This document shows positions 5,166 through 46,315 of a DNA stretch of 64,000 nucleotides, piece after piece. A program made the translations under genes and the position numbers. Where the stretch lies: the NCBI GenBank assembly GCA_028286605.1, contig JAQBRE010000002.1:464065-528064 (forward strand), in the 5' to 3' direction. This DNA is from Parcubacteria group bacterium. Lineage in GTDB: Bacteria; Patescibacteriota; Minisyncoccia; Phycocordibacterales; Phycocordibacteraceae. Every line of letters begins with the position of its first letter. Positions within the stretch are counted from its first letter, which is position 1. Below the pieces are notes generated by a model. It worked only from the letters and a program-made list of their open reading frames with translations. It had not been told where the DNA came from and did not search any database.

Positions 5166-6551
<1,386 letters not shown>

Positions 6552-6561
6552 TCACTTCCTG

Positions 6562-6810
6562 ATGGCAAAGACTTTTCACCTCACCATCGCACGCGTCGGC
6601 GAGAACCTGTTCGAAGGACAGGCGAAGAGCGTTACCGTGCCTGGTGGAGAAGGGGTGCTCACCATCCTCGCTGAACACGAAGCATTCGTAACGCCGCTCA
6701 AGCCAGGCACCATACGCATCGATCCTGCAGAAGGCGAGCCGATCACGCTTCAGATTGAAGACAAAGGCCTGGTGGAAGTCTCGAACAACCAAGCGACCGT
6801 GTTGCTGTAA
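6562..6810 (+). CDS. atpC: F0F1 ATP synthase subunit epsilon, short form (82 aa, beta-sandwich domain only)
   Basis: Last gene of cluster; length consistent with epsilon lacking the C-terminal helical inhibitory domain. Confidence 0.8.
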   Translation: MAKTFHLTIARVGENLFEGQAKSVTVPGGEGVLTILAEHEAFVTPLKPGTIRIDPAEGEPITLQIEDKGLVEVSNNQATVLL

Positions 6811-6892
6811 CCTTAAGAAGGTATATAATAGAAAGGTATCAAGACGAAGACGGACCCGAACGGTGTAAGTGCCTAATGGGAGCCCCTTCAAG

Positions 6893-6927
6893 AAAATAGC
6901 CTATTTTATATAGGCTATTTTCTTTTT
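6893..6927. terminator. Bidirectional rho-independent terminator between atpC (+) and the NYN gene (-)
   Basis: aaaatagcctat-ttta-tataggctatttt followed by ctttttac; overlaps last codons of the minus-strand gene. Confidence 0.6.
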
Positions 6928-7413
6928 ACTATCCTCGTCATTTAAGAAAGCAATAAATTTTTCATCAAGTTCCTTATACAAAGAAGATGTAAATGTAAGG
7001 TTTGGAAATAATATCTTTCCAAAGCGATTCTTTTTAATCAAATAATCAATCAGCTTTTTATAATCTCCATCACCAGAAACGACATAGATTTTATTGAATA
7101 CTTCTTTCTCAACCAGCATCTTCATAGCAACAAAGATAATATCGGAATCTACGTTTCCTTTCTTATTGCTTGAAAGACCAGAAGAGTGCTCTTTGAAGTT
7201 CAGAATAAATCCAGCTTGTTCAAGATCGTCATATAAATCTTGGTATTTTTCAGATCTATATCCAAGAAAGTAATACACACTGATAATTTGATGCTTATCT
7301 CTCAAATAGATTCTAAATTTCCTATGATCTATTGCCCAGCCATCAGCTTTTGTTCCAAGATGCAGGTTCTGTCCATCAATAAATGCTATATTTCCTTGTA
7401 ATTCTGTCTCCAT
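6901..7413 (-). CDS. NYN-domain (LabA/YacP-like) predicted RNase; start trimmed to METELQ ATG
   Basis: Motifs IDGQNL, VDSDI, VVSGDGDY; gene body ~33% GC versus ~55% surroundings. Confidence 0.7.
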   Translation of the reverse strand: METELQGNIAFIDGQNLHLGTKADGWAIDHRKFRIYLRDKHQIISVYYFLGYRSEKYQDLYDDLEQAGFILNFKEHSSGLSSNKKGNVDSDIIFVAMKMLVEKEVFNKIYVVSGDGDYKKLIDYLIKKNRFGKILFPNLTFTSSLYKELDEKFIAFLNDEDSKKKIAYIK

Positions 7414-8077
7414 GCCTATTAACCCTATCGGAAACCCTGCGAAGTTGAGCGTAATTACGTATGCGTTTATCGCAATCATCTTGATAGGGATTTTATCTCT
7501 AGGATATATATTCTTCATCCACAAAGCAGCGACCGATTCGACGGCGTGTTCAACCAAGAATTTAAAAGTTGCAGCGTTCGGTGACAGTCTCGTCGCCGGT
7601 TATGGCGCTATGCAGGGGAATGATTTCCCTTCGCTGCTTTCGAAAACGCTTGGCGTACCAGTATCGAATTTTGGCGTTAGCGGAGACACCACTGCAGACG
7701 CGCTCGCGCGAATCAACAATGTCATCAGTGCGAAACCAGACGTAGTAATCGTTCTCCTTGGTGGAAACGATGCGTTACAGAAAGTGCCACTCGCAACGAC
7801 GAAGCAGGATCTTTCAACAATTATTGATACGTTTCAGAAGGCGAATATACAGGTTGTGCTCGTAGGAGTGCTCGGTGGCATTCCAACCGATCCATACGCA
7901 CCGATGTTCTTGAGTCTCGCGCAGCAGTACAAAGTCGTATCCGTATCGAATATTCTTTCTGGTCTTATCGGCAACAGCAATCTTATGAGCGACGAAGTAC
8001 ATCCTAATGACGCTGGGTATGTAAAAGTAGCTGCACGCATCGCACCGGCGGTTGAAAAGGCTTGTTCTTTGAAGTAG
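7412..8077 (+). CDS. SGNH/GDSL-family hydrolase (arylesterase/lipase-like), N-terminal TM anchor; start uncertain (overlaps divergent NYN start by 2 nt)
   Basis: GDS(L) block FGDSLVAGYG, GGNDAL block, DEVHPND block (catalytic triad S/D/H). Confidence 0.75.
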   Translation: MPINPIGNPAKLSVITYAFIAIILIGILSLGYIFFIHKAATDSTACSTKNLKVAAFGDSLVAGYGAMQGNDFPSLLSKTLGVPVSNFGVSGDTTADALARINNVISAKPDVVIVLLGGNDALQKVPLATTKQDLSTIIDTFQKANIQVVLVGVLGGIPTDPYAPMFLSLAQQYKVVSVSNILSGLIGNSNLMSDEVHPNDAGYVKVAARIAPAVEKACSLK

Positions 8078-12636: not shown

Positions 12637-15537
12637 ATGGCAAAGAACAGTTTTGATCATCAGGAGATAGAGAAGAAAGCCCAGGCCAAGTGGGAAGCAT
12701 TGAATATATACGAGAGCGATCTTACGGACACGACGAAAGATCCGTTCTACCTTCTGTTTGAATTCCCGTATCCGTCAGGCGATCTGCATGTGGGGCATTG
12801 GTATGCCTTCGCACTAACCGACATATACGCGCGTTTCCTGCGTATGAAGGGAAAGAATGTGTTGTTTCCTATCGGCTTTGATGCCTTCGGCTTGCCTGCG
12901 GAGAACGCGGCGATAAAGAACGGCGTGAACCCGCGTGATTGGACGTATGCGAACATGGAACGCATGCGTGCGCAGATACGAACGATGGGAACCTCCGTGG
13001 ACTGGAACAAGGAAGTGGTGACCTGCAGCCCTGAATACTACAAGTGGACGCAATGGCTCTTCGCGAAGCTGTATGAGCACAAGCTTGCCGAGCGTCGTAA
13101 TGCATCGGTGAAGTGGTGCCCACATGACCTAACCGTACTCGCGAACGAGCAGGTTATCGATGGTCACTGCGAACGCTGCGGAAGCGTCGTTGAAGAGAAG
13201 TTCCTTACGCAGTGGTTCCTCAAGATCACTGAATACGCCGAACGCTTGCTTACAGATTTGGAACCGCTTCCATGGCGTGAAGATATAAAAGATGCCCAGC
13301 GCGCATGGATAGGAAAGTCTGAAGGCGCGAAGCTTCGCTTCCAGGTGGTGAATGCCGACACGGCGATGGCACCCATAAGCAGTGCAGAAGGCTCAACTGC
13401 AATCGAGGTGTTCACCACGCGCCCTGATACGATATTCGGCGCAACCTATGTAGTGCTCGCCCCGGAACACGCACTTATTGATACATTGATGCCGGTATTC
13501 ACGAATGCAGACGCCGTCAACGCATATCGCGAAACGACTGCACGAAAGACGGAGCGCGAGCGCTCCGAGAATAAGGAGAAGACCGGCGTGCGGCTTGAAG
13601 GCGTAATGGCGGTCAACCCTGCAACGCTGAAAGAGATTCCCATCTACGTCGCAGACTATGTGCTCGGTTCATACGGAACTGGCGCCGTTATGGCCGTACC
13701 TGCGCATGATGAACGTGATTTCGCATTCGCGCAGAAGTTCGATCTCCCTATCGTGCATGTTATTGATCCTGTCACGGGTGAGAAACAGGAGAATCCAACG
13801 GATAAAGCAAAGATTGTCGCACTCGTTGAGAACGCTAAGGGCGAAGTTCTTACCATTCACTGGAAGCCTGAACTTGGCGGGCGATTGCTTGTTGGCGGCA
13901 CTGCAGAAGAGGGCGAAGAGGCAAGCGTAACCGCAGCTCGTGAGATTACAGAAGAAACCGGCTATGCAGACCTTGAACTTGTTGAGCAGGCAGATGAGCA
14001 GGTCCATCATGAATACTTCGCATTCTCGAAGAACAAGGCATGGATAGCGCATTCGACGCTCCTTCACTTCAAGCTGAAGAGCGAGAAGCAGAACGAACAG
14101 GCGCTTGAGGAAGATGAGAAAGGAAAGTTTACGGTTGAGTGGGTTACGCCTGAAGTGGCGGCGCGCGAGATACATGACGAGCTTCACGAATACGTACTAC
14201 AGCGCTTCACGAACTATCAGCCGTATACCGGTAATGGATTACTCCGTAACTCGGGTTCATTCGATGGCCGCAGCAATCAGGAGGTCATGAATGAGATCGT
14301 CGCTGCAGTCGGCGGCGAGATAACGACGAACTATCGCATTCGCGACTGGCTCGTCTCGCGTCAGCGCTATTGGGGATGCCCGATTCCTGTCGTCTATGAT
14401 CCGGAAGGGAATGCGCACCTTGTTCCGACCGAGCACCTACCGTGGCTGCTTCCGGAAGATGTGGACTTTACGCCCGGCGCCGGAGGCGCCGGTAATTCCC
14501 CGCTCGCGACGAGTAAAGAACTTAAAGAGCGCGTCGAGCGCTTGTTCGGCGAAGGCTGGACGCCTGAATATGACACGCTCGATACATTCGTGGATTCTTC
14601 CTGGTATTTCCTTCGGTATCTAGATTCGAAGGACGATCACGATTTCTCGGACCCTGCCATGATGAAGCAATGGCTTCCGGTTAATCGCTATGCCGGCGGC
14701 GCAGAGCATACCACTATGCATCTTCTGTATGCGCGTTTCTTCCAGAAGGCACTGTTCGATCTTGCTCTCGTTCCCACCGCCGAGCCATTTTTCGAACGAT
14801 ACAACCGTGGACTCGTTATGGGTCCTGACGGCCAGAAGATGTCTAAATCGAAAGGGAACGTCATTAACCCTGATGAAGTGGTGGAGAAATACGGCGCAGA
14901 TACTGTGCGCATGTATCTCGCCTTCCTTGGTCCGTACAACGAACCGGGTAATTATCCCTGGAAGCCTGAAGGCGTATTCGCGATGCGAAAGTTCCTGGAC
15001 CGCATCGTCGCCCTTTCCCAGCGCCTCTCGGACGAAGAACCGAATGATGCGACACTGCGCGCCCTTGCTAAGGCAACCGAGAAAGTGGCCCTTGATACCG
15101 AACGCTTCAAGCTGAACACGGCAATCTCTACTCTTATGGTGCTTACGAACGAGCTTGAGGCTTTAGCTTCGGTTCCGAAGAGCGCATATCTTCAGTTGGT
15201 GACGATACTCGCACCCTATGCGCCGCACGTGGCTGAATACCTATTCGAGAGTACGCAGCTAACCAGCACGCATACGGAAATCGATTCCGCGGGTACAAGC
15301 ATCCATCAGCAGCTCTGGCCTGAGGTTGATGAAGCGATGCTGACCAGCGAAACTATCACTATGGGCGTGCAGATCGCTGGAAAACGCCGCGGGGAAGTGA
15401 CGTTGAGCCCTGAAGCGAGCGAAGAAGAAGCGCTTGCGGCAGCCCTTGGGGTGCCAGAAGTGCAGAAGTACCTGGAGGGCCGGCTGCCGGCCCGGGTGAT
15501 ATATGTTCCAGGTCGTATATTGAACCTGATACTCTAG
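12637..15537 (+). CDS. leuS: Leucine--tRNA ligase with an inserted Nudix-box domain
   Basis: HIGH-class motif HVGH (aa 51-54), editing-domain TTRPDT, KMSKS (QKMSKSKG); 966 aa; insertion aa ~385-525 contains exact Nudix box. Confidence 0.95.
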   Translation: MAKNSFDHQEIEKKAQAKWEALNIYESDLTDTTKDPFYLLFEFPYPSGDLHVGHWYAFALTDIYARFLRMKGKNVLFPIGFDAFGLPAENAAIKNGVNPRDWTYANMERMRAQIRTMGTSVDWNKEVVTCSPEYYKWTQWLFAKLYEHKLAERRNASVKWCPHDLTVLANEQVIDGHCERCGSVVEEKFLTQWFLKITEYAERLLTDLEPLPWREDIKDAQRAWIGKSEGAKLRFQVVNADTAMAPISSAEGSTAIEVFTTRPDTIFGATYVVLAPEHALIDTLMPVFTNADAVNAYRETTARKTERERSENKEKTGVRLEGVMAVNPATLKEIPIYVADYVLGSYGTGAVMAVPAHDERDFAFAQKFDLPIVHVIDPVTGEKQENPTDKAKIVALVENAKGEVLTIHWKPELGGRLLVGGTAEEGEEASVTAAREITEETGYADLELVEQADEQVHHEYFAFSKNKAWIAHSTLLHFKLKSEKQNEQALEEDEKGKFTVEWVTPEVAAREIHDELHEYVLQRFTNYQPYTGNGLLRNSGSFDGRSNQEVMNEIVAAVGGEITTNYRIRDWLVSRQRYWGCPIPVVYDPEGNAHLVPTEHLPWLLPEDVDFTPGAGGAGNSPLATSKELKERVERLFGEGWTPEYDTLDTFVDSSWYFLRYLDSKDDHDFSDPAMMKQWLPVNRYAGGAEHTTMHLLYARFFQKALFDLALVPTAEPFFERYNRGLVMGPDGQKMSKSKGNVINPDEVVEKYGADTVRMYLAFLGPYNEPGNYPWKPEGVFAMRKFLDRIVALSQRLSDEEPNDATLRALAKATEKVALDTERFKLNTAISTLMVLTNELEALASVPKSAYLQLVTILAPYAPHVAEYLFESTQLTSTHTEIDSAGTSIHQQLWPEVDEAMLTSETITMGVQIAGKRRGEVTLSPEASEEEALAAALGVPEVQKYLEGRLPARVIYVPGRILNLIL

Positions 15538-15697: not shown

Positions 15698-16309
15698 ATG
15701 CCTTTTCTGATATCAACCCTGGTGGGTTTAATGGTTCTACCGGCTAGCCTCACAGCGCCGATGCCCGCAGCAGTTGTCGCTTCTACAACCGTAGCAGTAA
15801 CGACCGCCCCGACGAGCTTCAAACCTGTGGTGCCTGGCACAAAGGAAGCTACCACTCCCTTTACGGTCAAACTCACCGCTTATAACGCCGTGCCTTCACA
15901 AACGGATGCAAACCCCTTTGTGACGGCAAGCGGCTCGTTCTCGAATCCCGAAGTCGTAGCAGCCCGTTCAGGCGACCTTGCGAGTGATCTTCCTTACGGA
16001 ACGATCATCGCGATCGAGCGATCCGGCAGCGACACCCCCAGCTGTAATTACAGCAAGGTGCAGCAGCAGATCGGTTATCGCGTTATCGCAGATGCCATGA
16101 ACACTCGTATCACGAATACGGTCGACGTGCTTCTCGACCAGAATGATACGGTGCCGCTCGATGGAAAGGAGGTTAATCCGGGCAAAGCGCTCGGCTTGTG
16201 CGGGAAGGTTACGATTCGCGTCGTAGGCCATATTGCGGTCAAGGATATTCCTAAGACCCAGGCTGAACTCGCGGCATTCGTCGCTCCTCCCGTGCTTGCA
16301 ACCCGCTAA
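15698..16309 (+). CDS. Secreted 3D-domain (MltA/YuiC-like) cell-wall protein
   Basis: Signal peptide; TAYNA...TASG, GTIIAIE, YRVIADAMNTRITNTVDVLLD blocks typical of 3D domain. Confidence 0.65.
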   Translation: MPFLISTLVGLMVLPASLTAPMPAAVVASTTVAVTTAPTSFKPVVPGTKEATTPFTVKLTAYNAVPSQTDANPFVTASGSFSNPEVVAARSGDLASDLPYGTIIAIERSGSDTPSCNYSKVQQQIGYRVIADAMNTRITNTVDVLLDQNDTVPLDGKEVNPGKALGLCGKVTIRVVGHIAVKDIPKTQAELAAFVAPPVLATR

Positions 16310-18136: not shown

Positions 18137-18571
18137 ATGGCAAGCAAGTTCGTTCCGGGCGATTACATACTGACGCCGAAGCGCTCCAGCGCCGGTATTG
18201 GTTTATTCGCAGGGCAGGATATTCCGAAAGGCGTCTGCGTTATCGAATATGTTGGCAAAGAGGTCCCTGAAGCAGATCAGTACACCAACAAGAGTCGCTA
18301 CCTATTCGGTATCGGTGAAAAACGCATGGTGGATGGGAAGCCGAAGATAAATAAGGCGGGCTATATCAATCATTCCTGCGCAGCGAATTGCGAGCCTGAA
18401 ATATACAAGGGCCGCATCTTCATCATGTCTAAGAAAACGATCAAGAAAGGCGAGGAGCTTACCTACGACTACGGCGCAGAGTATTTCAATGACATCATCC
18501 TTGGCGATGGCGGCTGCAAGTGCGCGAAGTGCGCCGTTACCGGAAACGGTCAGAAGAAGCGACGAGCCTAA
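18137..18571 (+). CDS. SET-domain protein (putative protein lysine methyltransferase)
   Basis: NHSCAANC, ELTYDYG, post-SET Cys cluster CKCAKC. Confidence 0.75.
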   Translation: MASKFVPGDYILTPKRSSAGIGLFAGQDIPKGVCVIEYVGKEVPEADQYTNKSRYLFGIGEKRMVDGKPKINKAGYINHSCAANCEPEIYKGRIFIMSKKTIKKGEELTYDYGAEYFNDIILGDGGCKCAKCAVTGNGQKKRRA

Positions 18572-18586
18572 TAAGGCTCGTGTTAA

Positions 18587-18614
18587 CAAAACGCCGAGCT
18601 GTGCTCGGCGTTTT
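18587..18614 (+). terminator. Terminator after SET gene
   Basis: aaaacgccgagc-tgt-gctcggcgtttt. Confidence 0.7.
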
Positions 18615-18660
18615 GCGTGTATTAATTGAAGAAGGAGATCAGATAGCCGTTTATCTCGCG

Positions 18661-19503
18661 CTAATCCAGGTCATAAAAGTTCTGGCCTTCTACGTGGAGC
18701 TTGGTGGCAAGGTCTATGCCCACATAACGCCAATGCCATGGCTCGTATTCGTAATACGAATTCCCTTTCGGATACGAAAGGATGAAGCCGTATTGATACG
18801 CATTTGCCTCGAGCCACGTGTAGGTGCTTGTTTTCTCGAAGCCAGTGAAGGTTCCGCCGACTTTCGTTGTGGTGAGGTCGAAGGCAGTGCCCAGCTGGTG
18901 CTCTGAATAGCCCTGATCCGCAGAGAATGAGTTCGCCGTGCCTGCGCCATACGTAACCTTATATTCGCTCTTCAGAGCCGCCTGCGTGCCGAATGAGCGG
19001 TATCCAGAGGCCACGAGCATGTCTACACCGCTTGCTCGTGCTGCATCGAGCATCGCGTACAGATGACCCTGTATAGGTGCGAGCGTCTGCACGGTGCGTG
19101 TCGGCTCGTATAGATATTTCGAATCGATATCTGCAATGGAAGCTGGAGTGTAATTCTCATTCAAGAAATAGACTTTCGAATACTTTGCAAGGAGCTGCGG
19201 GTCTGTCTTTGAAAGCTGGTCCAATTGCCCCACCGTGCCGCTTATCTGTGAGATCTGCTTTTCGAACGTCTGATTCTTATTCTGCTCAGCCGTTAGCGCA
19301 TCCTGCAGTGAATTTCGATCCTGAGTGGTGCGTGCAAGAGTAGCCTGCAACGCATCCTCTGCCGCAGTCGTTGAAGCCAGATTGCTCTGTGCGATGCTCG
19401 CTACGGTGTATTCGTGATAAAGCGCATATCCGCCGCCCAAAAGAATCAGTACCGCCAGTACTGCAGGAACAAGAACACGTGCGGAGAAAGCCATTGCTCC
19501 CAT
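18661..19503 (-). CDS. D-alanyl-D-alanine carboxypeptidase, M15/VanY family, membrane-anchored with coiled-coil linker
   Basis: N-terminal TM; SGYRSF...SEHQLGTAFDL motif of VanY/M15B peptidases. Confidence 0.8.
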   Translation of the reverse strand: MGAMAFSARVLVPAVLAVLILLGGGYALYHEYTVASIAQSNLASTTAAEDALQATLARTTQDRNSLQDALTAEQNKNQTFEKQISQISGTVGQLDQLSKTDPQLLAKYSKVYFLNENYTPASIADIDSKYLYEPTRTVQTLAPIQGHLYAMLDAARASGVDMLVASGYRSFGTQAALKSEYKVTYGAGTANSFSADQGYSEHQLGTAFDLTTTKVGGTFTGFEKTSTYTWLEANAYQYGFILSYPKGNSYYEYEPWHWRYVGIDLATKLHVEGQNFYDLD

Positions 19504-19535
19504 CCTCGCACGCAGTCCCTGACCCGTCTATGCGG

Positions 19536-19778
19536 CTAGGAATGCAGCGTTTGGCGGCTTCGTAGGGTGTTCTTGTACAGAAGGACCGTTCGTTCGCCTA
19601 GCTCATGGTAGAGGGTATGAGCCATGGTGAGGACTAGGGAAAGACGGGCGCGAAGCGCCCGATCAAACTCTGGATACAAAGCAAAGATCACACCGAAAGC
19701 ACCCAGCACGATGGCAAGGAAGAAGAGTCCGAATGTCCCAGCTAACAGAATGAAGGTTATTCGCTCGTATAGATGCAT
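19536..19778 (-). CDS. Small membrane protein (80 aa), hypothetical
   Basis: ORF track; two hydrophobic helices; two TATGCATA palindromes just upstream (19781-19809). Confidence 0.35.
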   Translation of the reverse strand: MHLYERITFILLAGTFGLFFLAIVLGAFGVIFALYPEFDRALRARLSLVLTMAHTLYHELGERTVLLYKNTLRSRQTLHS

Positions 19779-19830
19779 ATGCGCGCAGTATGCATATTTG
19801 GGCCTAAAGGGTCAATGAAGACCTGAACGG

Positions 19831-20511
19831 CTACGGGTATCCGGGGTAATACTCGATCTTAATGTCATCCACCCACTCAGTGCCTGGAATAACACTTAAC
19901 ACCTTACCGAAAATCCTTGAATCCTCCTGATTCACCGGAATAGGCTGATACGTACCGTAATGATTCTGCGGATTCAAGTACACCATTTCATCTATCTTTC
20001 GATACTGCTTGATAACGGCCATGTTACCGAGTACCGCAACCACTTGGTCTCCGTCGCTCACTTCTTCGGTTACCTCAACTATTACGTAGTCGCCGCTGCG
20101 GATACCTGCATCGATCATACTGTCGCCAACTGCACGAACCGCTGCAAGATTCTTCTTGGTGCCAACCAAGCGGCTATCGATAGCGATGAATTCTCCGAAC
20201 TCATTCTGCGCGAACACCTCAACAGCATCACACCCTGCAGAAGCGATGACAGGAATCTGAATGATGCCTGAGTGCGCGAAAGGGAATTCAGTATCAAGGA
20301 TAGTGATGCTGCGATGCTGGTTGCGGTCGCGCTTCGTAAAGCCTTTTCGTTCTAATGATTCAAGACGCTGCGTAACGCTGCGAAGCGAGCGTAGATTCAG
20401 GCCGATACGCATTTCAGTAATGGTCGGAGCCTGCTGATTTTTCGCAAAATACTGCTTTATAAAATTGAGCGTTTCTTCCTGTGCACCGGTGAGAATATTG
20501 TGCGTTGCCAT
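19831..20511 (-). CDS. lexA: LexA repressor (start trimmed to MATHNIL)
   Basis: N-terminal wHTH, S24 peptidase core AVRAVGDSMIDAGIRSGDYVIV with Ser and downstream Lys (VLGNMAVIKQY). Confidence 0.85.
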   Translation of the reverse strand: MATHNILTGAQEETLNFIKQYFAKNQQAPTITEMRIGLNLRSLRSVTQRLESLERKGFTKRDRNQHRSITILDTEFPFAHSGIIQIPVIASAGCDAVEVFAQNEFGEFIAIDSRLVGTKKNLAAVRAVGDSMIDAGIRSGDYVIVEVTEEVSDGDQVVAVLGNMAVIKQYRKIDEMVYLNPQNHYGTYQPIPVNQEDSRIFGKVLSVIPGTEWVDDIKIEYYPGYP

Positions 20512-20685
20512 ATATCTACAAGATACACCCATCACGCATGCATGTTGTATGTTATCCACACAATTTGCACACAACATACACAACTTTACTGCACAGGTAA
20601 AAAGAAAAACCGCTCCTCCTCCTGTGTCTCGCAATAAATGCGATAGCAGGAAGAGGGCGATTTTCAGATTGGCTTGCGCCATAGA

Positions 20686-21396
20686 TCAGGTCGGAACGAC
20701 CACCGGACGCCGAAGCTTCCGGAACATCGCACCGACGCCGCCGAAGCCGACGAGCATCAAAGCCCACATCGACGGTTCGGGAACCGCATGAACTTCGGTG
20801 ATTTGCGCAAAGACGTTGTCGATGGCGATGGCGTTGTGTTCCAGGCCGGTGGTGCCGAGGGGGTCGGTCTCACTGGTGGGCTTCACAGCCAGCCAAAGAT
20901 CGGTGAACGTGCCGCTGGTCGCCTCGATGTTGAGGGTCTCGAAGCTGTGGAACGGAACGCCGCCGAAGGTCTGGGCCGTAACGAAGGTCGTGCCGTTCAT
21001 CACCCGCAGAAGCAGATTGTCGCCCGGCGCGCTGAAGAAGCTGCCGAAGTCGAGGCTCAGCGCTTTGAAGGCGGTGCCGGGAGCCGAGTGGATGTCGATG
21101 TAGCCGAGGTGCTGCGAAGGCGCGAAGCTCGGGTTGGAACCCGCCAGCGTGCTGATGATGTCCTGCGTCGAAGAAAGGCTCTTGACGTCGAAAATCATGC
21201 CGTCATTGGTGTAGGTACTCACACCCGGAGCCGTGCCGGTGAAGCCCGTGAAATCCACGGAGTTCGTGGCGATAAAGCCCGGAGGAACGCCCACCGAAAC
21301 GATGACCGTCGTGGCGTTCGCCGGAGTCGAGAGCGCGAGAAGCGCACCCGCCAAAGCGAGGGCCGAAGCGGCCCCAAGCAGAGAAACGTGTCGCAT
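20686..21396 (-). CDS. PEP-CTERM-anchored secreted protein
   Basis: Signal peptide; C-terminal VPEPSMWALMLVGFGGVGAMFRKLRR; gene ~65% GC. Confidence 0.8.
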   Translation of the reverse strand: MRHVSLLGAASALALAGALLALSTPANATTVIVSVGVPPGFIATNSVDFTGFTGTAPGVSTYTNDGMIFDVKSLSSTQDIISTLAGSNPSFAPSQHLGYIDIHSAPGTAFKALSLDFGSFFSAPGDNLLLRVMNGTTFVTAQTFGGVPFHSFETLNIEATSGTFTDLWLAVKPTSETDPLGTTGLEHNAIAIDNVFAQITEVHAVPEPSMWALMLVGFGGVGAMFRKLRRPVVVPT

Positions 21397-21531
21397 GTAG
21401 ACTCTCCTTCAAGAGACTGTTGAACTAGGTTAATCTATGGGAAGCAAGAAGAACTGTATTTCCTCTATATACTACAAACAACCACGATTCTGTCAAGGGC
21501 TATTCACAGGAAACCCAGTATTTCCAAGGTA

Positions 21532-21560
21532 TTGACAAAATGACCAATATAGATTTAAAT
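21532..21560 (+). promoter_or_regulatory. Candidate sigma70 promoter (TTGACA-17-TTAAAT) for 21642 gene
   Basis: Read in AT-rich divergent intergenic region; GGGAGA RBS before ATG 21642. Confidence 0.4.
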
Positions 21561-21641
21561 ACACGGGACTACAGCGGTTCGCCCTTGGGGGACTGACGGT
21601 ACGTCTTGTACAACACCAACCGGTTCAGGGAGATCTGACCA

Positions 21642-22184
21642 ATGAATATCAAGCTTCTCGCGGGCGCCGCTCTGGCGCTCGGTCTGACCACTGCGGCCTT
21701 CGGGGCGCAGGCCTCGATCTACGACTTCAGCTGGATCGACACCGTCGGCGGCAACGATTCGGCCACCGGGCAATTCACCTTGAACAGCTCGTCTGTGATC
21801 ACCAACTTCACCGGCACGCAAATCGTGGGCACCAGCACCAGCGCAATCGGCGGCACCTCGAGCTTCGGCTCGGCGGATCAGCTCTTCTCGCCGACGGCGG
21901 CGGAGCCCTTCGACTTCAATGGCGCGTCCTACCACACGGCGACCCTCGGCGACTTCAATCTGGCCTTCGACCCGGGGAGCGGCTTGGGCCTCGTGCGCAT
22001 CAGCAGCACCGAAACCCCCGGCGGCACCGCCGACGGCGAACACTCGATCACGTTCTCGGCGACCAAGGTCGCGGGCGGCGTTCCGGAACCGGCGAGCTGG
22101 GCTCTGATGATCCTGGGCTTCGGCGGCGTCGGCGCCACCCTGCGCAACACGAAGCGGAAGACGGCCCTGGCCGCCACCGCCTAG
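21642..22184 (+). CDS. PEP-CTERM-anchored secreted protein
   Basis: Signal peptide; C-terminal VPEPASWALMILGFGGVGATLRNTKRK; GC-rich. Confidence 0.8.
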   Translation: MNIKLLAGAALALGLTTAAFGAQASIYDFSWIDTVGGNDSATGQFTLNSSSVITNFTGTQIVGTSTSAIGGTSSFGSADQLFSPTAAEPFDFNGASYHTATLGDFNLAFDPGSGLGLVRISSTETPGGTADGEHSITFSATKVAGGVPEPASWALMILGFGGVGATLRNTKRKTALAATA

Positions 22185-22237
22185 AACGCAGAAGCGCGAC
22201 GACGACTAAACCACGTGCCGCCGAGGCGGCACGAAAA

Positions 22238-22272
22238 GGGCCTCTCCAGAAATGGAGAGGCCCACTTTTTAT
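22238..22272. terminator. Bidirectional terminator (gggcctctcc-agaaat-ggagaggccc + actttttatac)
   Basis: Between convergent 21642 and 22292 genes. Confidence 0.7.
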
Positions 22273-22291
22273 ACTTTGGTCAGGCGAAAAC

Positions 22292-22798
22292 CTAATCTAC
22301 GATGACGTTGATCGTGTACGGCTTCGCAATATTCGTTGCGGGCCAGTACGGCGTGAACGTCATGTTCGACGCGGCGGTGAAGCTTACCATCTTCGTGCTG
22401 CCAGGAGTAATAGTTCCTGTGGAAAGAGTCGCGCTGCGGTAGTCGAGGCCGCCATGATACGTGGTTCCCGCGTCAGCGCCGAAGGTGATGCTTACCGGCG
22501 TTCCTTTCTTAACCGTAATGGTCTTGAGGTCTGCCGTCGCATCATTTCCGTTTACAACGAAGTGCATCGCTGCGGGAGTGCCCGCTGAAGGTACAGGAGT
22601 CGCTCCGATTGTCACATTCGCTTGCACCATCGCAGGAGCCGCGGTGCCGCTTATATCCATACCAGTTGGCATGGTGGTTGATGACACCGCCTGAGTTGTT
22701 GCTGGTATGGAAGCTGCATTATTCTTCATCCATGCGTATACACCGCCTGCAATGAGGACGAGTACGATGATGAGGCCGATAACGTAAGGAGTTTTCAT
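22292..22798 (-). CDS. Membrane-anchored Ser/Thr/Ala-rich secreted protein, hypothetical
   Basis: N-terminal TM MKTPYVIGLIIVLVLIAGGVYAW; beta-rich C-terminal domain. Confidence 0.5.
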   Translation of the reverse strand: MKTPYVIGLIIVLVLIAGGVYAWMKNNAASIPATTQAVSSTTMPTGMDISGTAAPAMVQANVTIGATPVPSAGTPAAMHFVVNGNDATADLKTITVKKGTPVSITFGADAGTTYHGGLDYRSATLSTGTITPGSTKMVSFTAASNMTFTPYWPATNIAKPYTINVIVD

Positions 22799-22866
22799 AC
22801 GGAATTTCGGTTAGAGGGTATTGAATACTTAGTATACTACGATGAAATACCTTATAATGGTGAATT

Positions 22867-24624
22867 ATGGCTGATAAACAAGCTTCAACCCCTCCTGCGG
22901 AGGGAACTCTTTTTGACCTGCTACGCCCGTACAGCGGGTGGATAATTCTGCTGCTCGTATTCACGATAGGCGGGAACGCGCTTAACCTTGCAGTGCCGCA
23001 GATTCTTTCGCAGGCTATTGATGCGTACACCACGCACACGCTGGTTCTGGGCCGAACGCTTACGCTGTTCGGTTTCGTGGCCTTCGGAATCTTCCTTTTG
23101 AACAACCTGCAGAGCCTGGTGCAGACATATGCATCAGAGCGCGTTGCACGTGATCTGCGTACCCGTATCGCCACTGCTATCTCGCATCAGGACTACGCGA
23201 GCGCGGAAGAGATGACCCCATCGACCCTTCTGACGAACCTTACTTCTGACGTAGACGCAGTGAAGACATTCGTTTCGCAGGCCGTGGCGTCTATCATCTC
23301 TTCGATTTTCCTTATCATCGGCGCGAGCGCGTTGCTACTTTCGATTAACTGGAAGCTCGCGCTCGCCGTGCTTGCCGTTCTTCCATTCATTGGCGGAACC
23401 TTCTATGTAGTGCTCGGTCGCGTTCGTAAGCTATTCCGTAGATCGCAGGAAGCTATTGATCGCCTGAATAAGGTGATTAATGAAAGCGTGTTGGGTGCGG
23501 CGCTTATTCGTCTTCTAAATTCGCAAACACAAGAGTACGGCAAGTTCCTTGATGCGAACGGTAATGCACGAAGCATCAGCATGCAGATATTACGCCTGTT
23601 TGCCGCAATGATTCCGGTTATTACGTTCCTTACGAACGTCGCGACGCTCGTAATTCTTATACTGGGTGGCGAGTTCGTGATCGGAGGAACGATGACGCTT
23701 GGTCAGTTCACGGCGTTCAATAGTTACTTGGGTATCCTTATCTTCCCGATAATCATCATTGGTTTTATGAGCAACGCGATCGCACAGGCGAGTGCATCAT
23801 ATGCGCGTATTTCCGTGGTGCTTGGCAAGCCAGTACGCGATGCAGGAGGCGAGCGAAGTTCGCCTCTGACCGGAGCTATCGAAGTTCACGACCTCTCGCA
23901 ATCGTTCGGCGAACAGAAAGTGCTTCGCGACGTATCCTTCTCCATCAAGCCAGGAACGAAGAACGCTATTCTTGGTCCCACGGCAGCAGGAAAGTCGCAG
24001 CTCCTGTATCTTATGACCGGCCTGCTCGCACCGAACTCCGGTACGGTTTTGTATGACGGCGAACCTATCAATGCATATCAGAAGGCATCATTCTATTCGC
24101 AGATCGGTTTCGTATTCCAGGACAGCAGCATGTTCAACCTTACGCTTCGCGAGAACATCGCATTCAGCACGAGCGTTACGGATGAGCAGCTCGCGAAAGC
24201 TATCGACACCGCAGAGCTACATGATTTCATCGCATCGCTTCCAGATGGCCTCGACACTATCGTTTCCGAACGCGGCACATCGCTTTCCGGCGGCCAGAAG
24301 CAGCGCGTAATGCTTGCCCGTGCACTCGCGCAGGATCCGAAGATCCTGCTGCTTGATGATTTCACTGCGCGTGTAGATACGCGCACCGAGCAATCCATCC
24401 TTGCGAACGTGCGTAAGAATTATCCAGACCTCACGCTCATTTCCGTTACGCAGAAGATCGCGCCGATAGAAGACTACGATCAGATCATCGTACTTATGGA
24501 AGGAGAAATACTGGCGACCGGCGTACACAAGGATCTGATGCACACTTCACCGGAATACGTCCAGATATATGATTCGCAGCAGTCCACTGAACAATATGAT
24601 GCACCGAAGCACCCAACCGCATAA
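22867..24624 (+). CDS. ABC transporter permease/ATP-binding protein (type I exporter half-transporter)
   Basis: 6-TM domain + NBD with Walker A GPTAAGKS, signature LSGGQKQR, Walker B ILLLDD. Confidence 0.9.
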   Translation: MADKQASTPPAEGTLFDLLRPYSGWIILLLVFTIGGNALNLAVPQILSQAIDAYTTHTLVLGRTLTLFGFVAFGIFLLNNLQSLVQTYASERVARDLRTRIATAISHQDYASAEEMTPSTLLTNLTSDVDAVKTFVSQAVASIISSIFLIIGASALLLSINWKLALAVLAVLPFIGGTFYVVLGRVRKLFRRSQEAIDRLNKVINESVLGAALIRLLNSQTQEYGKFLDANGNARSISMQILRLFAAMIPVITFLTNVATLVILILGGEFVIGGTMTLGQFTAFNSYLGILIFPIIIIGFMSNAIAQASASYARISVVLGKPVRDAGGERSSPLTGAIEVHDLSQSFGEQKVLRDVSFSIKPGTKNAILGPTAAGKSQLLYLMTGLLAPNSGTVLYDGEPINAYQKASFYSQIGFVFQDSSMFNLTLRENIAFSTSVTDEQLAKAIDTAELHDFIASLPDGLDTIVSERGTSLSGGQKQRVMLARALAQDPKILLLDDFTARVDTRTEQSILANVRKNYPDLTLISVTQKIAPIEDYDQIIVLMEGEILATGVHKDLMHTSPEYVQIYDSQQSTEQYDAPKHPTA

Positions 24625-24627
24625 CCT

Positions 24628-26394
24628 ATGGATTACACCCTAACCACATCAGGAGGAGACGAAAAAAAGAAAGCGCTCGCAGGCGCGTGGGAAAGCCTTG
24701 CGCCGCTTCTTCGTGATGAGAAGACGAACCTGGCTATCGCGCTTATTGCAGTACTCGTGAACTCTGCAACGAACCTGCTTGCACCTATCGTCATCGCGCA
24801 CGTTATCGATACAGCAATCGCTACGCACAACTTCGTTGAGGTGCTGCGTGAAAGCGCGCTGCTTGGCGTAGTGTATGTTGCCGGCCTTATTGCAGGGTAT
24901 TTGCAGACCATTCGTATGGGAACGGTCGGTCGCGGCGTTCTTTTCAAGCTTCGTAATGCGCTTTTCACCAAGCTTTCTGAACTGCCTATCGCGTTCTTCA
25001 ATCAGAACAAGGCAGGCGATCTTATTTCGCGCATCAACAATGATACCGACAAGCTCAACCAATTCTTCGCGCAGGCGCTGATGCAGTTCATCGGCAGCTT
25101 CTTCGTTATTCTTGGCGCAGGCGTATTGCTACTTGTGCTGAATTGGCACTTAGGCCTCGGCGCACTCTTGCCAGCTGCAGGCGTGCTCATTATCACGCAA
25201 TTCCTTTCACCGTGGGTGAAGCGCAAGAGCCGCGACGGCCTGCAGAGCCTCGGTTCGCTTTCTGCCGAAGTGCAGGAAAGCATCGCGAACTTCAAAGTGA
25301 TCGTCGCCTTCGATCGTTTGGATTATTTCCGTCAGAAGTTCGATCAGGCGAATGTACGAAACTACAAAGCATCCGTCGGCGCTGGTATCGCCTCGAACCT
25401 ATTCACGCCACTGTATACGGTTGCGGCGAACATCGCGCAGATCGTGGTGCTTGGCTATGGCGTCCTGCTGATATCGAACGGTTCGCTCACGGTGGGTCTC
25501 TTGATTGGGTACCTTCTATACGTAACGAGCTTCTATAACCCGCTTCGCCAGCTCGCCAGCGTATGGTCCAGCTTGCAGCTTGCCCTTGCGTCGCTCGACC
25601 GCATTCAGGAAGTGCTCGGTCTTGAAAGCAATCTGCCGATACTGCCGGTTACCTCAACAGATTCGAAGCATGCACACACGCTGCTTTCTTTCGACGACGT
25701 CTCCTTCGCCTATCCTGAAGGGAAGAATGTGCTGCATGATGTTTCCTTCGAGCTTGCGCAGGGAAAGACGTACGCACTCGTTGGTCCCACGGGTGGAGGC
25801 AAAACCACGACCGCATCGCTCATGGCACGTCTCTTTGATCCTGTCTCAGGAACTATCGAACTGAATGGAAAAGATATTCGAACGTATACGCCTGAAGAAC
25901 GCGCGAAACATATCGGTTTTATCTTGCAGGAACCGTTCCTGTTCAGCGGCACTATTCGTGACAACATTTCGTATGGAAATCCTGAACTCGTCGCGATGAA
26001 TGATGATGAGTTGCGAGCGGTATTGAAAGAGAAAAATCTCGTGCAGCTCATTGAACGATTTAATGATGGATTGGATACGAATGTAGTTGCGGCAGGAGAA
26101 GGTATTTCATTGGGGCAGAAGCAGCTCATCGCGTTCATGCGCGCGGTACTCCGCGCGCCGGCACTGCTTATTCTTGATGAAGCAACGGCGAACATCGATA
26201 CCGTTACGGAACAGCTTCTTGAAGAAATCCTTGAACAGCTTCCGCGCACCACGACGAAAGTTATTATCGCGCATCGCCTTAATACTATTCAAAGCGCAGA
26301 TAGTATCTTCTTCGTGAATGGAGGAACCGTTACAGAGGCGGGTTCAATGGAACACGCTGTGGAGATGCTCCTTTCTGGAACGCACGCGAGCTAG
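24628..26394 (+). CDS. ABC transporter permease/ATP-binding protein, partner half-transporter
   Basis: Walker A GPTGGGKTT, signature ISLGQKQL, Walker B LILDEATA; adjacent to first half. Confidence 0.9.
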   Translation: MDYTLTTSGGDEKKKALAGAWESLAPLLRDEKTNLAIALIAVLVNSATNLLAPIVIAHVIDTAIATHNFVEVLRESALLGVVYVAGLIAGYLQTIRMGTVGRGVLFKLRNALFTKLSELPIAFFNQNKAGDLISRINNDTDKLNQFFAQALMQFIGSFFVILGAGVLLLVLNWHLGLGALLPAAGVLIITQFLSPWVKRKSRDGLQSLGSLSAEVQESIANFKVIVAFDRLDYFRQKFDQANVRNYKASVGAGIASNLFTPLYTVAANIAQIVVLGYGVLLISNGSLTVGLLIGYLLYVTSFYNPLRQLASVWSSLQLALASLDRIQEVLGLESNLPILPVTSTDSKHAHTLLSFDDVSFAYPEGKNVLHDVSFELAQGKTYALVGPTGGGKTTTASLMARLFDPVSGTIELNGKDIRTYTPEERAKHIGFILQEPFLFSGTIRDNISYGNPELVAMNDDELRAVLKEKNLVQLIERFNDGLDTNVVAAGEGISLGQKQLIAFMRAVLRAPALLILDEATANIDTVTEQLLEEILEQLPRTTTKVIIAHRLNTIQSADSIFFVNGGTVTEAGSMEHAVEMLLSGTHAS

Positions 26395-31582: not shown

Positions 31583-31716
31583 TAACTAAGGAACGGGAGG
31601 GAATACCCTACCCACTGAAGGCAGGTATATAGTAAAAAATACTTTTGTCAAATTATGGGATGAGTACTTCCTATCTTCATGCAATATCCACGAGGAGGAG
31701 GTATCATCAGGCGTAT

Positions 31717-32376
31717 ATGACTACACGACGCTATATTCTCGCTTCGGGCGCAACTCTCGTATTCGTAGCGGTGCTTATGTATGCAGGTACCAGCCTTGCG
31801 CAAGTAAATAATGCTCCGTCTTGCTCGAGCACTATGCAGAACGTAAACGTGAATCAGACCGCGGTCTTCACTGCTTCAGGCGGCAACGGATCCTATGTGT
31901 GGTCTGCTAATAGCTTCAGCTCGATGGGTGATTCTTCAGGCTCGCAGTTTTTAGTAAGCTTCCCGTCATCCGGTACGAATACCGTTCAGGTACGAAGTAA
32001 CGGCCAGACAAGCACGTGCTCGATTACGGTTCTTCCTGCGACGAGCAGCGATTCGAATTTCGTTTCGAACAGTTCCTCATCCGGCACGCTTGAATGTCTT
32101 CCTAGCTCGCAAAGCGTTGCAGCAGGACAGACGGCCTCTCTCACTGCCACCGGCGGCAACGGTTCCTACTTCTGGAACATACCGGAGCTCTCGCTCAATA
32201 ACCCTACTGGTACCGGCTCATACGTAACGTATGTTACTCCGGGCACCCGTACCGTTACGGTAACGAGCGGAGGCGCTTCTGCGACGTGCTCCATAGATGT
32301 GATTGGCACCGCAGTTACGCCCGTGGTTACCGTGCCTGGCCTACCCAATACTGGTGGTGGCTATGGCAAGTGGTAG
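31717..32376 (+). CDS. Secreted tandem-domain protein ending in LPNTG motif (putative sortase substrate); start at ATG 31717 after GGAGGAGG
   Basis: Signal peptide; two ~90-aa internal repeats (ASGGNGSYVWSA...TCSITV / ATGGNGSYFWNI...TCSIDV); C-terminal VPGLPNTGGGYGKW. Confidence 0.6.
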   Translation: MTTRRYILASGATLVFVAVLMYAGTSLAQVNNAPSCSSTMQNVNVNQTAVFTASGGNGSYVWSANSFSSMGDSSGSQFLVSFPSSGTNTVQVRSNGQTSTCSITVLPATSSDSNFVSNSSSSGTLECLPSSQSVAAGQTASLTATGGNGSYFWNIPELSLNNPTGTGSYVTYVTPGTRTVTVTSGGASATCSIDVIGTAVTPVVTVPGLPNTGGGYGKW

Positions 32377-32379
32377 CGC

Positions 32380-33051
32380 ATGAATAAGGGACGCTCGCTT
32401 TCCTGGCAGGCAGCGCTCGTGCTTCCTCTTGCTGCAGGCTTTTTCGGTACCGCGATATCAATCGTGATAAGCGATAGCGTGCATGCCGTGATGAACGATG
32501 GCGCGAGCGCGCTGCAGAAGATAGCTACCACGACCGCAGCCTCCGTGCCTACGACGGTTTCTGTGCAGACTGATGACACTACCGCTGCTGGGAATCCTGT
32601 ACGTCTTATCATTCCCTCAATCGGCATTGATGCTGCGGTGCAATCGGTAGGTATTGCCGAAACGGGTACCGGAGATATCGGTACTCCAAATAATGCGACA
32701 GATGTCGCATGGTATAACCGCGGGCCGGTGCCCGGATCTCCTGGTATCGCTATTATCGACGGCCATCTTGATACCCATACCGTTCCTGAAGCGGTGTTCT
32801 ATCATCTTGGAGATCTCACCGAAGGGGAGAGCATCTATGTAACGGACCGAGCCGGCGTGCAGCAACGGTTCGTGGTTACGGGGCGACAGCAACTTGCCTA
32901 CGATGCAGACACCAGCATGCTTTTCGTACATTCTAATACGCCACAGATTGCCCTTATAACATGCGCGGGCGATTGGGTGCCGGATAAGCACGAGTATACC
33001 GATCGCGTCGTGGTATTCGCCACGCTCGCAAACGAGAGCGTGCATATCTAA
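32380..33051 (+). CDS. Sortase family transpeptidase
   Basis: N-terminal signal anchor; conserved His (IIDGHLD), TLxTC-type catalytic Cys (IALITCAGD), conserved Arg (RVVVFA). Confidence 0.8.
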   Translation: MNKGRSLSWQAALVLPLAAGFFGTAISIVISDSVHAVMNDGASALQKIATTTAASVPTTVSVQTDDTTAAGNPVRLIIPSIGIDAAVQSVGIAETGTGDIGTPNNATDVAWYNRGPVPGSPGIAIIDGHLDTHTVPEAVFYHLGDLTEGESIYVTDRAGVQQRFVVTGRQQLAYDADTSMLFVHSNTPQIALITCAGDWVPDKHEYTDRVVVFATLANESVHI

Positions 33052-36930: not shown

Positions 36931-37011
36931 GACGCACCTTTCTAAAACGGCAAAGAGCCTGTTGATTCAGGCTCTATAATAAACATATTTATACTACATT
37001 GTCAACTCGAG

Positions 37012-37083
37012 CTCCGCGGGTAGGATTCGAACCTACGACCAAGTCGTTAACAGCGACCTGCTCTACCACTGAGCTACCGCGGA
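37012..37083 (-). tRNA. tRNA-Asn (anticodon GTT), CCA not encoded
   Basis: Minus strand TCCGCGGTAGCTCAGTGGTAGAGCAGGTCGCTGTTAACGACTTGGTCGTAGGTTCGAATCCTACCCGCGGAG folds into cloverleaf: 7-bp acceptor, D-arm GCTC/GAGC, anticodon loop CTGTTAA, T-loop TTCGAAT. Confidence 0.9.
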
Positions 37084-45841: not shown

Positions 45842-46315
45842 ATGAAAGAAAACTCATCTGCAGAAAATAGAATTACAAAAATTATTTCGTTAGTGGACGA
45901 GTACTTTCTACTTGATAAAGGAGACCTGATAGATAATCATGTGGAACTTTTACGTATTGCTGACATTCCAAATAATGCATCTCTCAAACATCCGCATGCT
46001 CTATGTAGAGTTTATATCTCCAGAAGAGCACGAAAACATTTTGTTGAGGAACGAAAGGAGGCTTTTTTTATTAAGCATTCAGAAGTTGAAACTTTAGATG
46101 CAATACATTTTGCAATACGCATGATTAGCGACGTGCTGTCAGATTTTGATTATCTCGAATACGAACCTAAAACTATACCTTCAAAATATTTTTACTCGAA
46201 AGACTATCGAGACATCGGGCGTCCAGCAGTACGTATTCTTGTTGAGGAGAAAGAAAAAACGCTTCAAATACGTTCAATACATTTCCAAACCCGTGACGAT
46301 GATAGGCAGAAATGA
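45842..46315 (+). CDS. Hypothetical protein in AT-rich islet
   Basis: ORF track; ~36% GC; terminator 46315-46342. Confidence 0.45.
   Translation: MKENSSAENRITKIISLVDEYFLLDKGDLIDNHVELLRIADIPNNASLKHPHALCRVYISRRARKHFVEERKEAFFIKHSEVETLDAIHFAIRMISDVLSDFDYLEYEPKTIPSKYFYSKDYRDIGRPAVRILVEEKEKTLQIRSIHFQTRDDDRQK

Follow-up and report, generated by a model that had tools for sequence, protein, structure and literature searches.

One of the closest described counterparts of the gene pair reported here is the PEP-CTERM/exosortase (EpsH, XrtA) system. In the portion of Haft et al. (2006; PMC1569441) on which we draw, the substrates of this system, including floc proteins such as PepA, combine an N-terminal signal peptide with a tripartite C-terminal tail, possess diverse cores with little homology to known proteins, are specified by single-gene units behind a large intergenic region, and are associated with a soil habitat. 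In this paper, we analyse a stretch of 64,000 nt (the window) of a 532,551-bp contig from a metagenome-assembled genome (MAG) labelled 'Parcubacteria group bacterium', in which two divergent genes, A and B (JWM39_579 / JWM39_580, with the NCBI entries MDB5265866.1 / MDB5265867.1, both named hypothetical proteins), show the same combination of features. The PEP-CTERM kind of protein is thus a known one, and it is the Parcubacteria lineage that is unexpected for it. Unlike the members of the proteobacterial PEP-CTERM regulon, genes A and B have neither a sigma-54 -24/-12 element nor a PrsK/R/T context.

Three other known systems resemble this locus in part. In archaea, PGF-CTERM proteins are reportedly processed by archaeosortase A in a cell with a single membrane (the work said to establish this being that of Haft in 2012 and that on Haloferax ArtA), which provides a precedent for such tails working without an outer membrane; there, too, an exosortase-family enzyme acts on a tripartite C-terminal signal, but the motif is PGF, the organisms belong to another domain of life, and no archaeosortase was seen in the window. 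The second is formed by the PEPxxWA-CTERM proteins of Alphaproteobacteria (model NF035944), which carry the same tail (…VPEPASWALMILGFGGVGA…R.RR; 37-56 bits against a cut-off of 35), and are likewise small proteins with a signal peptide, a beta-rich core, and similar G+C (GC) content and GC content at third codon positions (GC3). They differ from our pair in that the latter resides in a Parcubacteria host of ~52% GC behind AT-rich sigma-70-like promoters, and in that the cores of A and B reach no more than about 50% identity to any alphaproteobacterial sequence. Thirdly, in variable surface-protein loci such as the mycoplasma variable lipoproteins and the neisserial pilE/pilS, conserved 5' and 3' ends frame exchangeable cores. 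The locus described here likewise has conserved ends and a replaced middle, and diverges far faster than its flanks; unlike those loci, it has no silent cassettes, site-specific recombinase or repeat array in the window, and one swap only was seen, between strains and not within a clone.

Judged from their sequences, A and B appear to be genuine PEP-CTERM-tailed secreted proteins, best classified as the PEPxxWA-CTERM variant. Both score above the curated cut-offs of three hidden Markov models (HMMs), i.e. NF035944, TIGR02595 and PF07589 (35, 16 and 20.7 bits, respectively), with 37, 19.6 and 27.5 bits for protein A and 48.2, 18.6 and 25.2 bits for protein B, and they carry the sole PEP-type tails found in a six-frame reading of the window. 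In protein A, the PEP motif (residues 206-208) and a helix (208-227) are followed by RKLRR and six further residues; in protein B, the PEP motif (148-150) and a modelled helix (149-177) are followed by RNTKRK and eight further residues. By inspection, the signal peptides, with a basic N-terminus, a hydrophobic stretch and an AXA site, comprise residues 1-28 of A (ANA|T) and 1-24 of B (AQA|S). An earlier note on this DNA had assigned a signal peptide and a PEP-CTERM signal to both proteins; the C-termini do read as it quoted them, and its assignment of the tails withstands all three models, including TIGR02595, the one that it had proposed for the purpose. In the AlphaFold2 models, both proteins form a beta-sandwich followed by one long C-terminal helix, with strands within residues 30-201 and a helix at 208-227 in A (pLDDT, the model's confidence score, 75.6), and strands within residues 25-142 and the helix at 149-177 in B (pLDDT 66). 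The fold of A weakly matches jelly-roll carbohydrate-binding modules (Foldseek E 3e-5 to 1e-3, TM-scores 0.3-0.47), and no significant match was found for the fold of B among solved structures. Close homologues of protein A are few: 1.84 billion cluster representatives yielded only two, with identities of 47% and 44%.

The site between lexA and two ABC exporter genes (Table) that the pair occupies is also filled in relatives of this organism, whose contigs and proteins are denoted below by L and P numbers. The clearest case is L090/L091 (ENA forest soil; a Logan run), from a genome of about 59% GC, in which the order VanY, small open reading frame (ORF), LexA, 230-aa PEP-CTERM protein (minus strand), spacer, 186-aa PEP-CTERM protein (plus strand), two ABC genes, response regulator, inositol monophosphatase, 207-aa ORF and MASE1 kinase matches that of the window. 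The flanking proteins are well conserved (LexA 88.5%, ABC proteins 86-87%, kinase 71% identity), and the pair itself has diverged to about 29% identity for A and about 39% over part of the length for B. L172, which comes from the same run as the window strain, has an A-type gene 47% identical to A (GC3 0.835), then a terminator, then lexA (GC3 0.59). Together with L008, a strain variant described below, the site of the pair is therefore occupied in L008, L091/L090 and L172. Elsewhere in the clade, related loci hold one to three PEP-CTERM genes each, compared with two in the window. L005 has three (GC3 0.92-0.93), which lie next to homologues of the window gene at 15698-16309 and of GH18, and two of them diverge from a 285-bp spacer; its 232-aa A partner was rejected as an orthologue of A, the match being limited to the tails. 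In L246, a homologue of the gene at 15698-16309, GH18 and SET are followed by two tandem PEP-CTERM genes, and in L009 a SET gene is followed by a B-type gene; around GH18 and SET, the genes of L005, L009 and L246 thus include ones of the B or P0008 type (P0008 is described below). L002, part of a 109-kb contig of 48% GC whose ATP synthase is 71-81% identical to that of the window, carries one B-type gene (GC3 0.79) among neighbours of GC3 about 0.45 and in a different context. Ten of the ten tested proteins of these relatives pass NF035944 with 39-56 bits.

The borders of the pair offer no trace of a mobile element, as no tRNA, integrase, transposase or direct repeat was found there; the sole tRNA of the window lies at 37011-37083, and the only repeat bordering the pair is an inverted one of 56 nt (84%; 20729-20784 and 22080-22135), which consists of the tail-coding ends of A and B. 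Neither gene matched any plasmid, and the matches to viral contigs were limited to the tails, with none close, so there is no sign of a phage or plasmid vehicle. A metagenome scan with LexA returned one relative, L092 (66% identity), which lacks synteny and has no PEP-CTERM gene within 4 kb, the remaining matches being generic LexA proteins of ~30% identity. The earlier note had taken the pair to be an islet acquired horizontally by this genome. The comparison of the lexA-proximal locus across relatives that it had suggested contradicts this, as an arrangement with the pair between lexA and the ABC genes recurs in L090/L091 and an A-type gene stands next to lexA in L172; the native, conserved promoter (see below) and the borders devoid of integrase, tRNA and direct repeat speak against it as well.

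How such a locus may diversify can be seen in L008, a JGI contig from another sample, which represents a strain variant of the window and carries both junctions of the pair. Between the two strains, lexA, A and the spacer are about 99% identical, A differing at 8 nt and 2 residues and the spacer at 7 positions, and the segment 22069-22816 is 100% identical. At the place of positions 21692-22068, L008 has instead 428 bp of 64% GC with no detectable DNA similarity, flanked on the left by DNA that is 99% identical and on the right by DNA that is 100% identical. The product, P0008, has its first 17 and last 38 residues in common with B. These identical ends around a dissimilar middle, in a near-identical background, indicate that the ectodomain-coding core was replaced between the ends that code for the signal peptide and the tail. 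The closest core relatives of the two alleles are 41-50% identical and differ between them, being P0005, P0006 and P0007 for B, and P0124 and P0129 for P0008; cores of the P0008 type have a tight group of relatives at 44-46% identity, two of which are named Phenylobacterium by NCBI. The nearest full-length relatives show 41-54% identity, and those of the nearest relatives that have readable contigs are all found on contigs sharing homologous flanking genes with the window.

A separate observation is that the two strains are mosaic over 18845-22816, the VanY gene (18845-19500) being about 89% identical, which suggests, from the pattern of identities, a recent recombination tract or sweep over the whole segment from lexA to the 168-aa gene downstream of B.

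The rapid change of the cores is in sharp contrast to the constraint on the tails. A comparison of 13 clade proteins gives a mean identity of 67% for the 22 residues around PEP and of 24.5% for the cores, and both PEP and the following W are invariant. As such invariance alongside diverged cores is needless for a mere membrane anchor, it points to a cognate processing enzyme, and it argues that the tail is functional in the clade.

The composition of the pair is highly deviant. Gene A has 62.6% GC and a GC3 of 0.80, and gene B 67.2% GC and a GC3 of 0.90, in a window of 51.8% GC. The 62 other ORFs of the window have a GC3 of 0.567 +/- 0.083 with a maximum of 0.691, all of which both genes exceed, with z scores of 2.8 for A and 4.0 for B. 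Codons ending in A (GGA, GCA, ACA, TCA, GTA, CCA, CTA, TTA) are virtually absent from A and B, and account for 5-32% of usage elsewhere in the window. Only the coding parts are enriched in GC, as the 245-bp spacer is AT-rich (43.7% GC). The deviant composition that the earlier note had attributed to the pair is thereby borne out, also in codon usage and GC3 where it had proposed to look; its ~55% for the background was slightly too high. Moreover, the anomaly persists across the clade, the PEP-CTERM genes having a GC3 of 0.79-0.93 whatever the genome around them, in genomes of 48-60% GC. The GC3 of the flanking genes, on the other hand, varies from about 0.45 in L002, 0.52-0.60 in L005 and 0.57 in the window to 0.72-0.84 in L246 and L090. 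Since the flanking ABC gene, whose proteins are 87% identical between the window and L090, differs in GC3 (0.59 and 0.80, respectively), the synonymous sites of the flanks have re-equilibrated since the split of these lineages, and those of the pair have not. The GC-rich alleles have thus either been introduced repeatedly, from high-GC relatives or Alphaproteobacteria, or been kept by a local bias or selection. Apart from the pair, it may be observed that the contigs L002, L005, L090 and L246, whose homologous and partly syntenic genes have 59-88% protein identity to those of the window, span a genomic GC of ~48 to ~60%, which is wide for relatives this close.

A source of the family is suggested by its tail. 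A search of species-representative genomes with the peptide pattern W[AG]LMI[LM]GF returned more than 599 stretches, and the best 80 loci, which were examined, all belong to Alphaproteobacteria or Pseudomonadota MAGs, including Phenylobacterium, Sphingomonas and Caulobacterales. Among those listed, the matches are mostly limited to the tail, and the median GC is 67.9%. At the DNA level, the tail-coding end of gene B is 88-93% identical over 60-77 bp to loci of Phenylobacterium and of other alphaproteobacterial (Caulobacterales, Pseudomonadota) MAGs. In view of the taxonomy and high GC of these loci, and of the identity of the tail DNA, it is most economical to derive the family, or its tail at any rate, from Alphaproteobacteria, at a time before the sampled lineages split.

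We consider the pair, with a probability of roughly 0.6, to be a resident, fast-evolving surface-protein locus of a soil Parcubacteria clade (candidate phyla radiation), not a fresh island. In such a locus, two single-gene units would be transcribed outward from a common AT-rich spacer by native sigma-70-type promoters, and their products, each made up of a predicted Sec signal peptide, a small beta-sandwich ectodomain and a PEPxxWA tail (PEP motif, membrane helix and basic cluster), would leave the cytoplasm through the Sec pathway and stay anchored in the cytoplasmic membrane through the tail helix until an exosortase-family enzyme, whose gene would lie elsewhere in the genome, cut them at or near PEP and so left them on the cell surface. 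Their probable role there would be to bind glycans, either those of a partner cell or those of the matrix, if the weakly carbohydrate-binding-module-like folds of A are a guide. The family, or at least its tail, would have come from Caulobacterales/Sphingomonadales-type Alphaproteobacteria before the sampled lineages split, and the ectodomain-coding cores would since have been turned over by recombination between the conserved ends, a process of which one instance, the swap in L008, is seen directly. The retention of GC-rich codons foreign to the surrounding genome is probably due to this turnover.

Several points weigh against this explanation. The bacteria of the candidate phyla radiation are generally thought to be without an outer membrane. 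No exosortase was found in the 64-kb window of the 532-kb contig, where the proteins with at least three predicted membrane helices are all assigned otherwise (ATP synthase a, DUF5671, two ABC transporters, MASE1 kinase, PMT_2), nor in the Pfam annotations of about 50 kb of the loci of relatives. The fold assignments are weak, with TM-scores of 0.3-0.47 for the model of A and nothing significant for that of B. Turnover by recombination alone leaves the source of the GC-rich alleles unexplained, and no donor of them was found among the sequences compared, the closest relatives being 41-54% identical. In the portion of Haft et al. (2006; PMC1569441) used here, moreover, PEP-CTERM proteins occur only in bacteria with an outer membrane, exopolysaccharide (EPS) genes and EpsH, and none of these correlates was seen within the window; no outer-membrane or EPS genes are present among its annotated genes, which do include a sortase, PMT_2 and peptidoglycan enzymes.

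Some of these points lend weight to the possibility that the genes are resident and expressed in an organism that has no exosortase, the tail serving as an inherited C-terminal membrane anchor. Besides the lack of an exosortase in the window and in the relatives' loci, and the tie of the system to outer-membrane bacteria in what was used of Haft et al. (2006; PMC1569441), the literature searched is in keeping with it, as neither PEP-CTERM proteins nor exosortases were linked there to candidate phyla radiation bacteria beyond a reference list or a passing mention. The term 'PEPxxWA' was not found in this literature. However, a bare anchor needs just hydrophobicity and a basic end, and would hardly account for a PEP and a W that stay invariant in 13 proteins whose cores are 24.5% identical, or for A, B and the ten tested clade proteins all scoring above the cut-off of the PEPxxWA model. 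We therefore regard it as doubtful, although it is the strongest of the competing explanations.

A less probable alternative is that the genes are old residents whose high GC3 is intrinsic, being kept by GC-biased gene conversion that accompanies frequent recombination or by selection on codons or mRNA at very high expression. In its favour, the anomaly is limited to the coding sequence next to an AT-rich spacer, persists across genomes of 48-60% GC, and remained unmoved while the GC3 of the flanking ABC gene went from 0.80 to 0.59 between lineages, and recombination has been observed at the locus. However, a GC3 shift from 0.57 to 0.90 is far larger than is known for biased gene conversion in bacteria, the ATP synthase and MreB genes, which are likely to be highly expressed, reach just 0.62-0.69, and the alphaproteobacterial type of the tail would be left unexplained. 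For these reasons, an intrinsic cause seems unlikely to us.

That the pair is a recent island, newly acquired from a high-GC alphaproteobacterium and not yet drifted in composition, agrees with the GC3 values and with the avoidance of A-ending codons, and the PEPxxWA tail, which in the best 80 loci of the reference genomes is alphaproteobacterial with a median GC of 67.9%, and whose coding DNA is 88-93% identical to loci of Phenylobacterium and alphaproteobacterial MAGs, is consistent with it. Nevertheless, it is largely refuted by synteny, since other species of the clade have the locus in the same gene context. In addition, the conserved promoter and leader are native and AT-rich, those of the nearest full-length relatives (41-54% identity) that have readable contigs lie on contigs with flanks homologous to the window, A has no close alphaproteobacterial relative, and there is no border tRNA, integrase or direct repeat, no plasmid match and no close viral match. 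A recent acquisition of the pair is thus very improbable. Lastly, an assembly or binning artefact that inserted a proteobacterial fragment in a Parcubacteria contig might be suspected from the compositional contrast and from the source being a MAG, but it is refuted for practical purposes, because the 1.5-kb stretch has host-like genes on both sides in one 532-kb contig, a Logan contig (SRR13312974) is 100% identical over window positions 18470-22118, including the lexA/A/B junction, both junctions are present in L008 from another sample with flanks 96-100% identical, and orthologous arrangements occur in ENA and Logan assemblies of other samples, a recurrence of the junctions in independent assemblies that a chimera would not produce.

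If the pair is, as we favour, a resident surface-protein locus, then the 13 HMM-positive PEP-CTERM proteins with constrained tails, from window-related contigs of several lineages, extend the range of PEP-CTERM to the candidate phyla radiation, and raise the question of an exosortase in these organisms and of what the proteins become attached to on such an envelope. The locus would also be one of few candidate sites of surface variation in bacteria that are considered to depend on attaching to other cells, a possible hint at their partners would come from the alphaproteobacterial type of the tail, and the persistence of the codon anomaly across genomes of 48-60% GC poses a small evolutionary puzzle. 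A more far-reaching idea, which we put forward as speculative and unlikely, is that in a clade of soil Parcubacteria exosortase-type sorting on an envelope without an outer membrane displays hypervariable, small lectin-like proteins whose genes were taken, and are still being refreshed, from GC-rich Alphaproteobacteria. If this were true, Alphaproteobacteria may be the bacteria that the clade lives on, and the locus would then serve for attachment or mimicry and would point, in the genome, to the host.

The positions of the features discussed are collected in the Table. The claim of the earlier note that an AT-rich, promoter-bearing spacer separates the genes is well founded, as the spacer contains two sigma-70-like elements, of which that facing B is conserved. 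A TTGACA-N17-TTAAAT element is found upstream of B-type genes in the window, L091, L009 and L002, and the spacer of L005 aligns over the same stretch. The spacers of relatives are equally AT-rich, with 43.5% GC in L005 and 47.5% GC in L091, the latter, of L090/L091, being 238 bp long. A sigma-54 GG-N10-GC core was found neither in the window spacer nor in the upstream regions of L091 and L002. A and B are thus single-gene units with a shared upstream spacer of 245 bp, and a terminator follows B; the hairpin at this place is likely, from its stem and its T-runs, to be a bidirectional terminator for gene B and the convergent 168-aa gene. At the 5' end of the gene B leader, a stem-loop was predicted by minimum free energy folding, with a z score of -1.2 only in the window; L005 (z -3.0), L009 (z -3.9) and L091 (z -1.7) are each predicted to form one at the corresponding place, with different inner stems. 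The regions concerned (window 21561-21641, L005 1478-1556, L091 3077-3150, L009 596-690) have similar outer bases, GGGAC…GUCUUG. The structure may be an mRNA-stabilising 5' hairpin, as far as the folding models go. A scan of 20400-22900 with Rfam gave nothing beyond a chance match to a microRNA. In L246, the regions upstream of the tandem PEP-CTERM genes (5893-6147 and 6760-6990) have a common motif, AAAAGGGCTTGC…GCGAGC(C/T)TTCTTG, which, from this repetition, may be a duplicated leader or regulatory element.

Table. Positions of the gene pair, its parts and its neighbours in the window
Feature	Position	Strand	Remarks
lexA	19831..20511	-	TIGR00498, 140 bits; conserved left flank; adjoins gene A on the same strand
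Near-palindrome TTGTATGTTATCCACACAA	20545-20563		upstream of lexA; sole match in the window
Gene A	20686..21396	-	236 aa; signal peptide, beta-jelly-roll ectodomain, PEPxxWA-type tail
Sorting tail of gene A, AVPEPSMWALMLVGFGGVGAMFRKLRRPVVVPT + stop	20686..20787	-	direct reading; HMM match aa 205-230
Divergent spacer	21397..21641		43.7% GC; both promoters and gene B leader
Sigma-70-like promoter facing A, TTGACA-16-TAGTAT	21469..21496	-	consensus scan, 10/12 matches; pattern match only
Sigma-70-like promoter facing B, TTGACA-N17-TTAAAT	21532..21560	+	recurs in L091, L009, L002
Predicted stem-loop, 5' end of gene B leader	21563..21609	+	minimum free energy fold; z -1.2 only in the window
Gene B	21642..22184	+	180 aa; signal peptide, beta-rich ectodomain, PEPxxWA-type tail
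Replaceable core of gene B, codons about 17-142	21692..22068	+	replaced in L008
Sorting tail of gene B, GVPEPASWALMILGFGGVGATLRNTKRKTALAATA + stop	22077..22184	+	HMM match aa 147-168
Hairpin with T-runs on both strands	22238..22263		11-pair stem, 8 G-C pairs; likely bidirectional terminator
168-aa gene	22292-22798	-	convergent with gene B
Two ABC exporter genes	22867..26394	+	conserved right flank; 86.7% and 85.5% aa identity to L090 counterparts

The Parcubacteria label fits what the window encodes, which includes DUF5671, PMT_2, a sortase, a short AlaRS and an ATP synthase operon. That lexA adjoins the pair, as had been claimed, is confirmed by its TIGR00498 score; its true start is probably the M at 20511 rather than 20682. 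The near-palindrome upstream of lexA has a counterpart, GTTGTGTGGATAACACACAAC, at the equivalent place of L172 (~840-880), and the two (TTGTATGTTATCCACACAA / GTTGTGTGGATAACACACAAC) may be regarded, from their sequence and position, as a candidate LexA box of the clade, although the pattern is statistically not unusual at 3 mismatches. As the palindrome stands upstream of lexA alone and the scan of the window found none like it in the A-B spacer, there is no evidence that the pair belongs to an SOS regulon.

A second system with a C-terminal motif, LPXTG/sortase, is located 10 kb from the pair in the same window, and its enzyme family is unrelated to exosortase. The earlier note had described an LPXTG/sortase pair at 31717-33051 (locus 31645-33051 in our analysis). 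The sortase is sound (PF04203, 69.9 bits, at 32380-33051); the neighbouring protein, which contains a PKD domain and ends in VPGLPNTGGGYGKW* (LPNTGGGYGKW), does have an LPXTG motif, LPNTG, but only six residues follow it, and this putative substrate has no membrane helix or basic tail, in which it differs from A and B. Two C-terminal sorting signals therefore do coexist in the window, as had been proposed, with the reservation that the tail of the LPNTG protein is short and free of a helix.

A few further observations on the window may be recorded. The 168-aa protein convergent with gene B is membrane-anchored and shows a faint nitrosocyanin/cupredoxin-like match (E 0.003), far under the cut-off; its gene separates gene B from the ABC genes in both the window and L008, and is missing from that position in L090. 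The leucyl-tRNA synthetase (12637-15537, 966 aa) contains a NUDIX domain at residues 393-523, directly after the editing-domain match at residues 222-388. Finally, the window has AT-rich patches, the reverse of the anomaly of A and B, at 7001-7500 (34% GC) and in the ORFs at 45842-46315 (35.9% GC, GC3 0.26) and 56244-56630 (39.3% GC).

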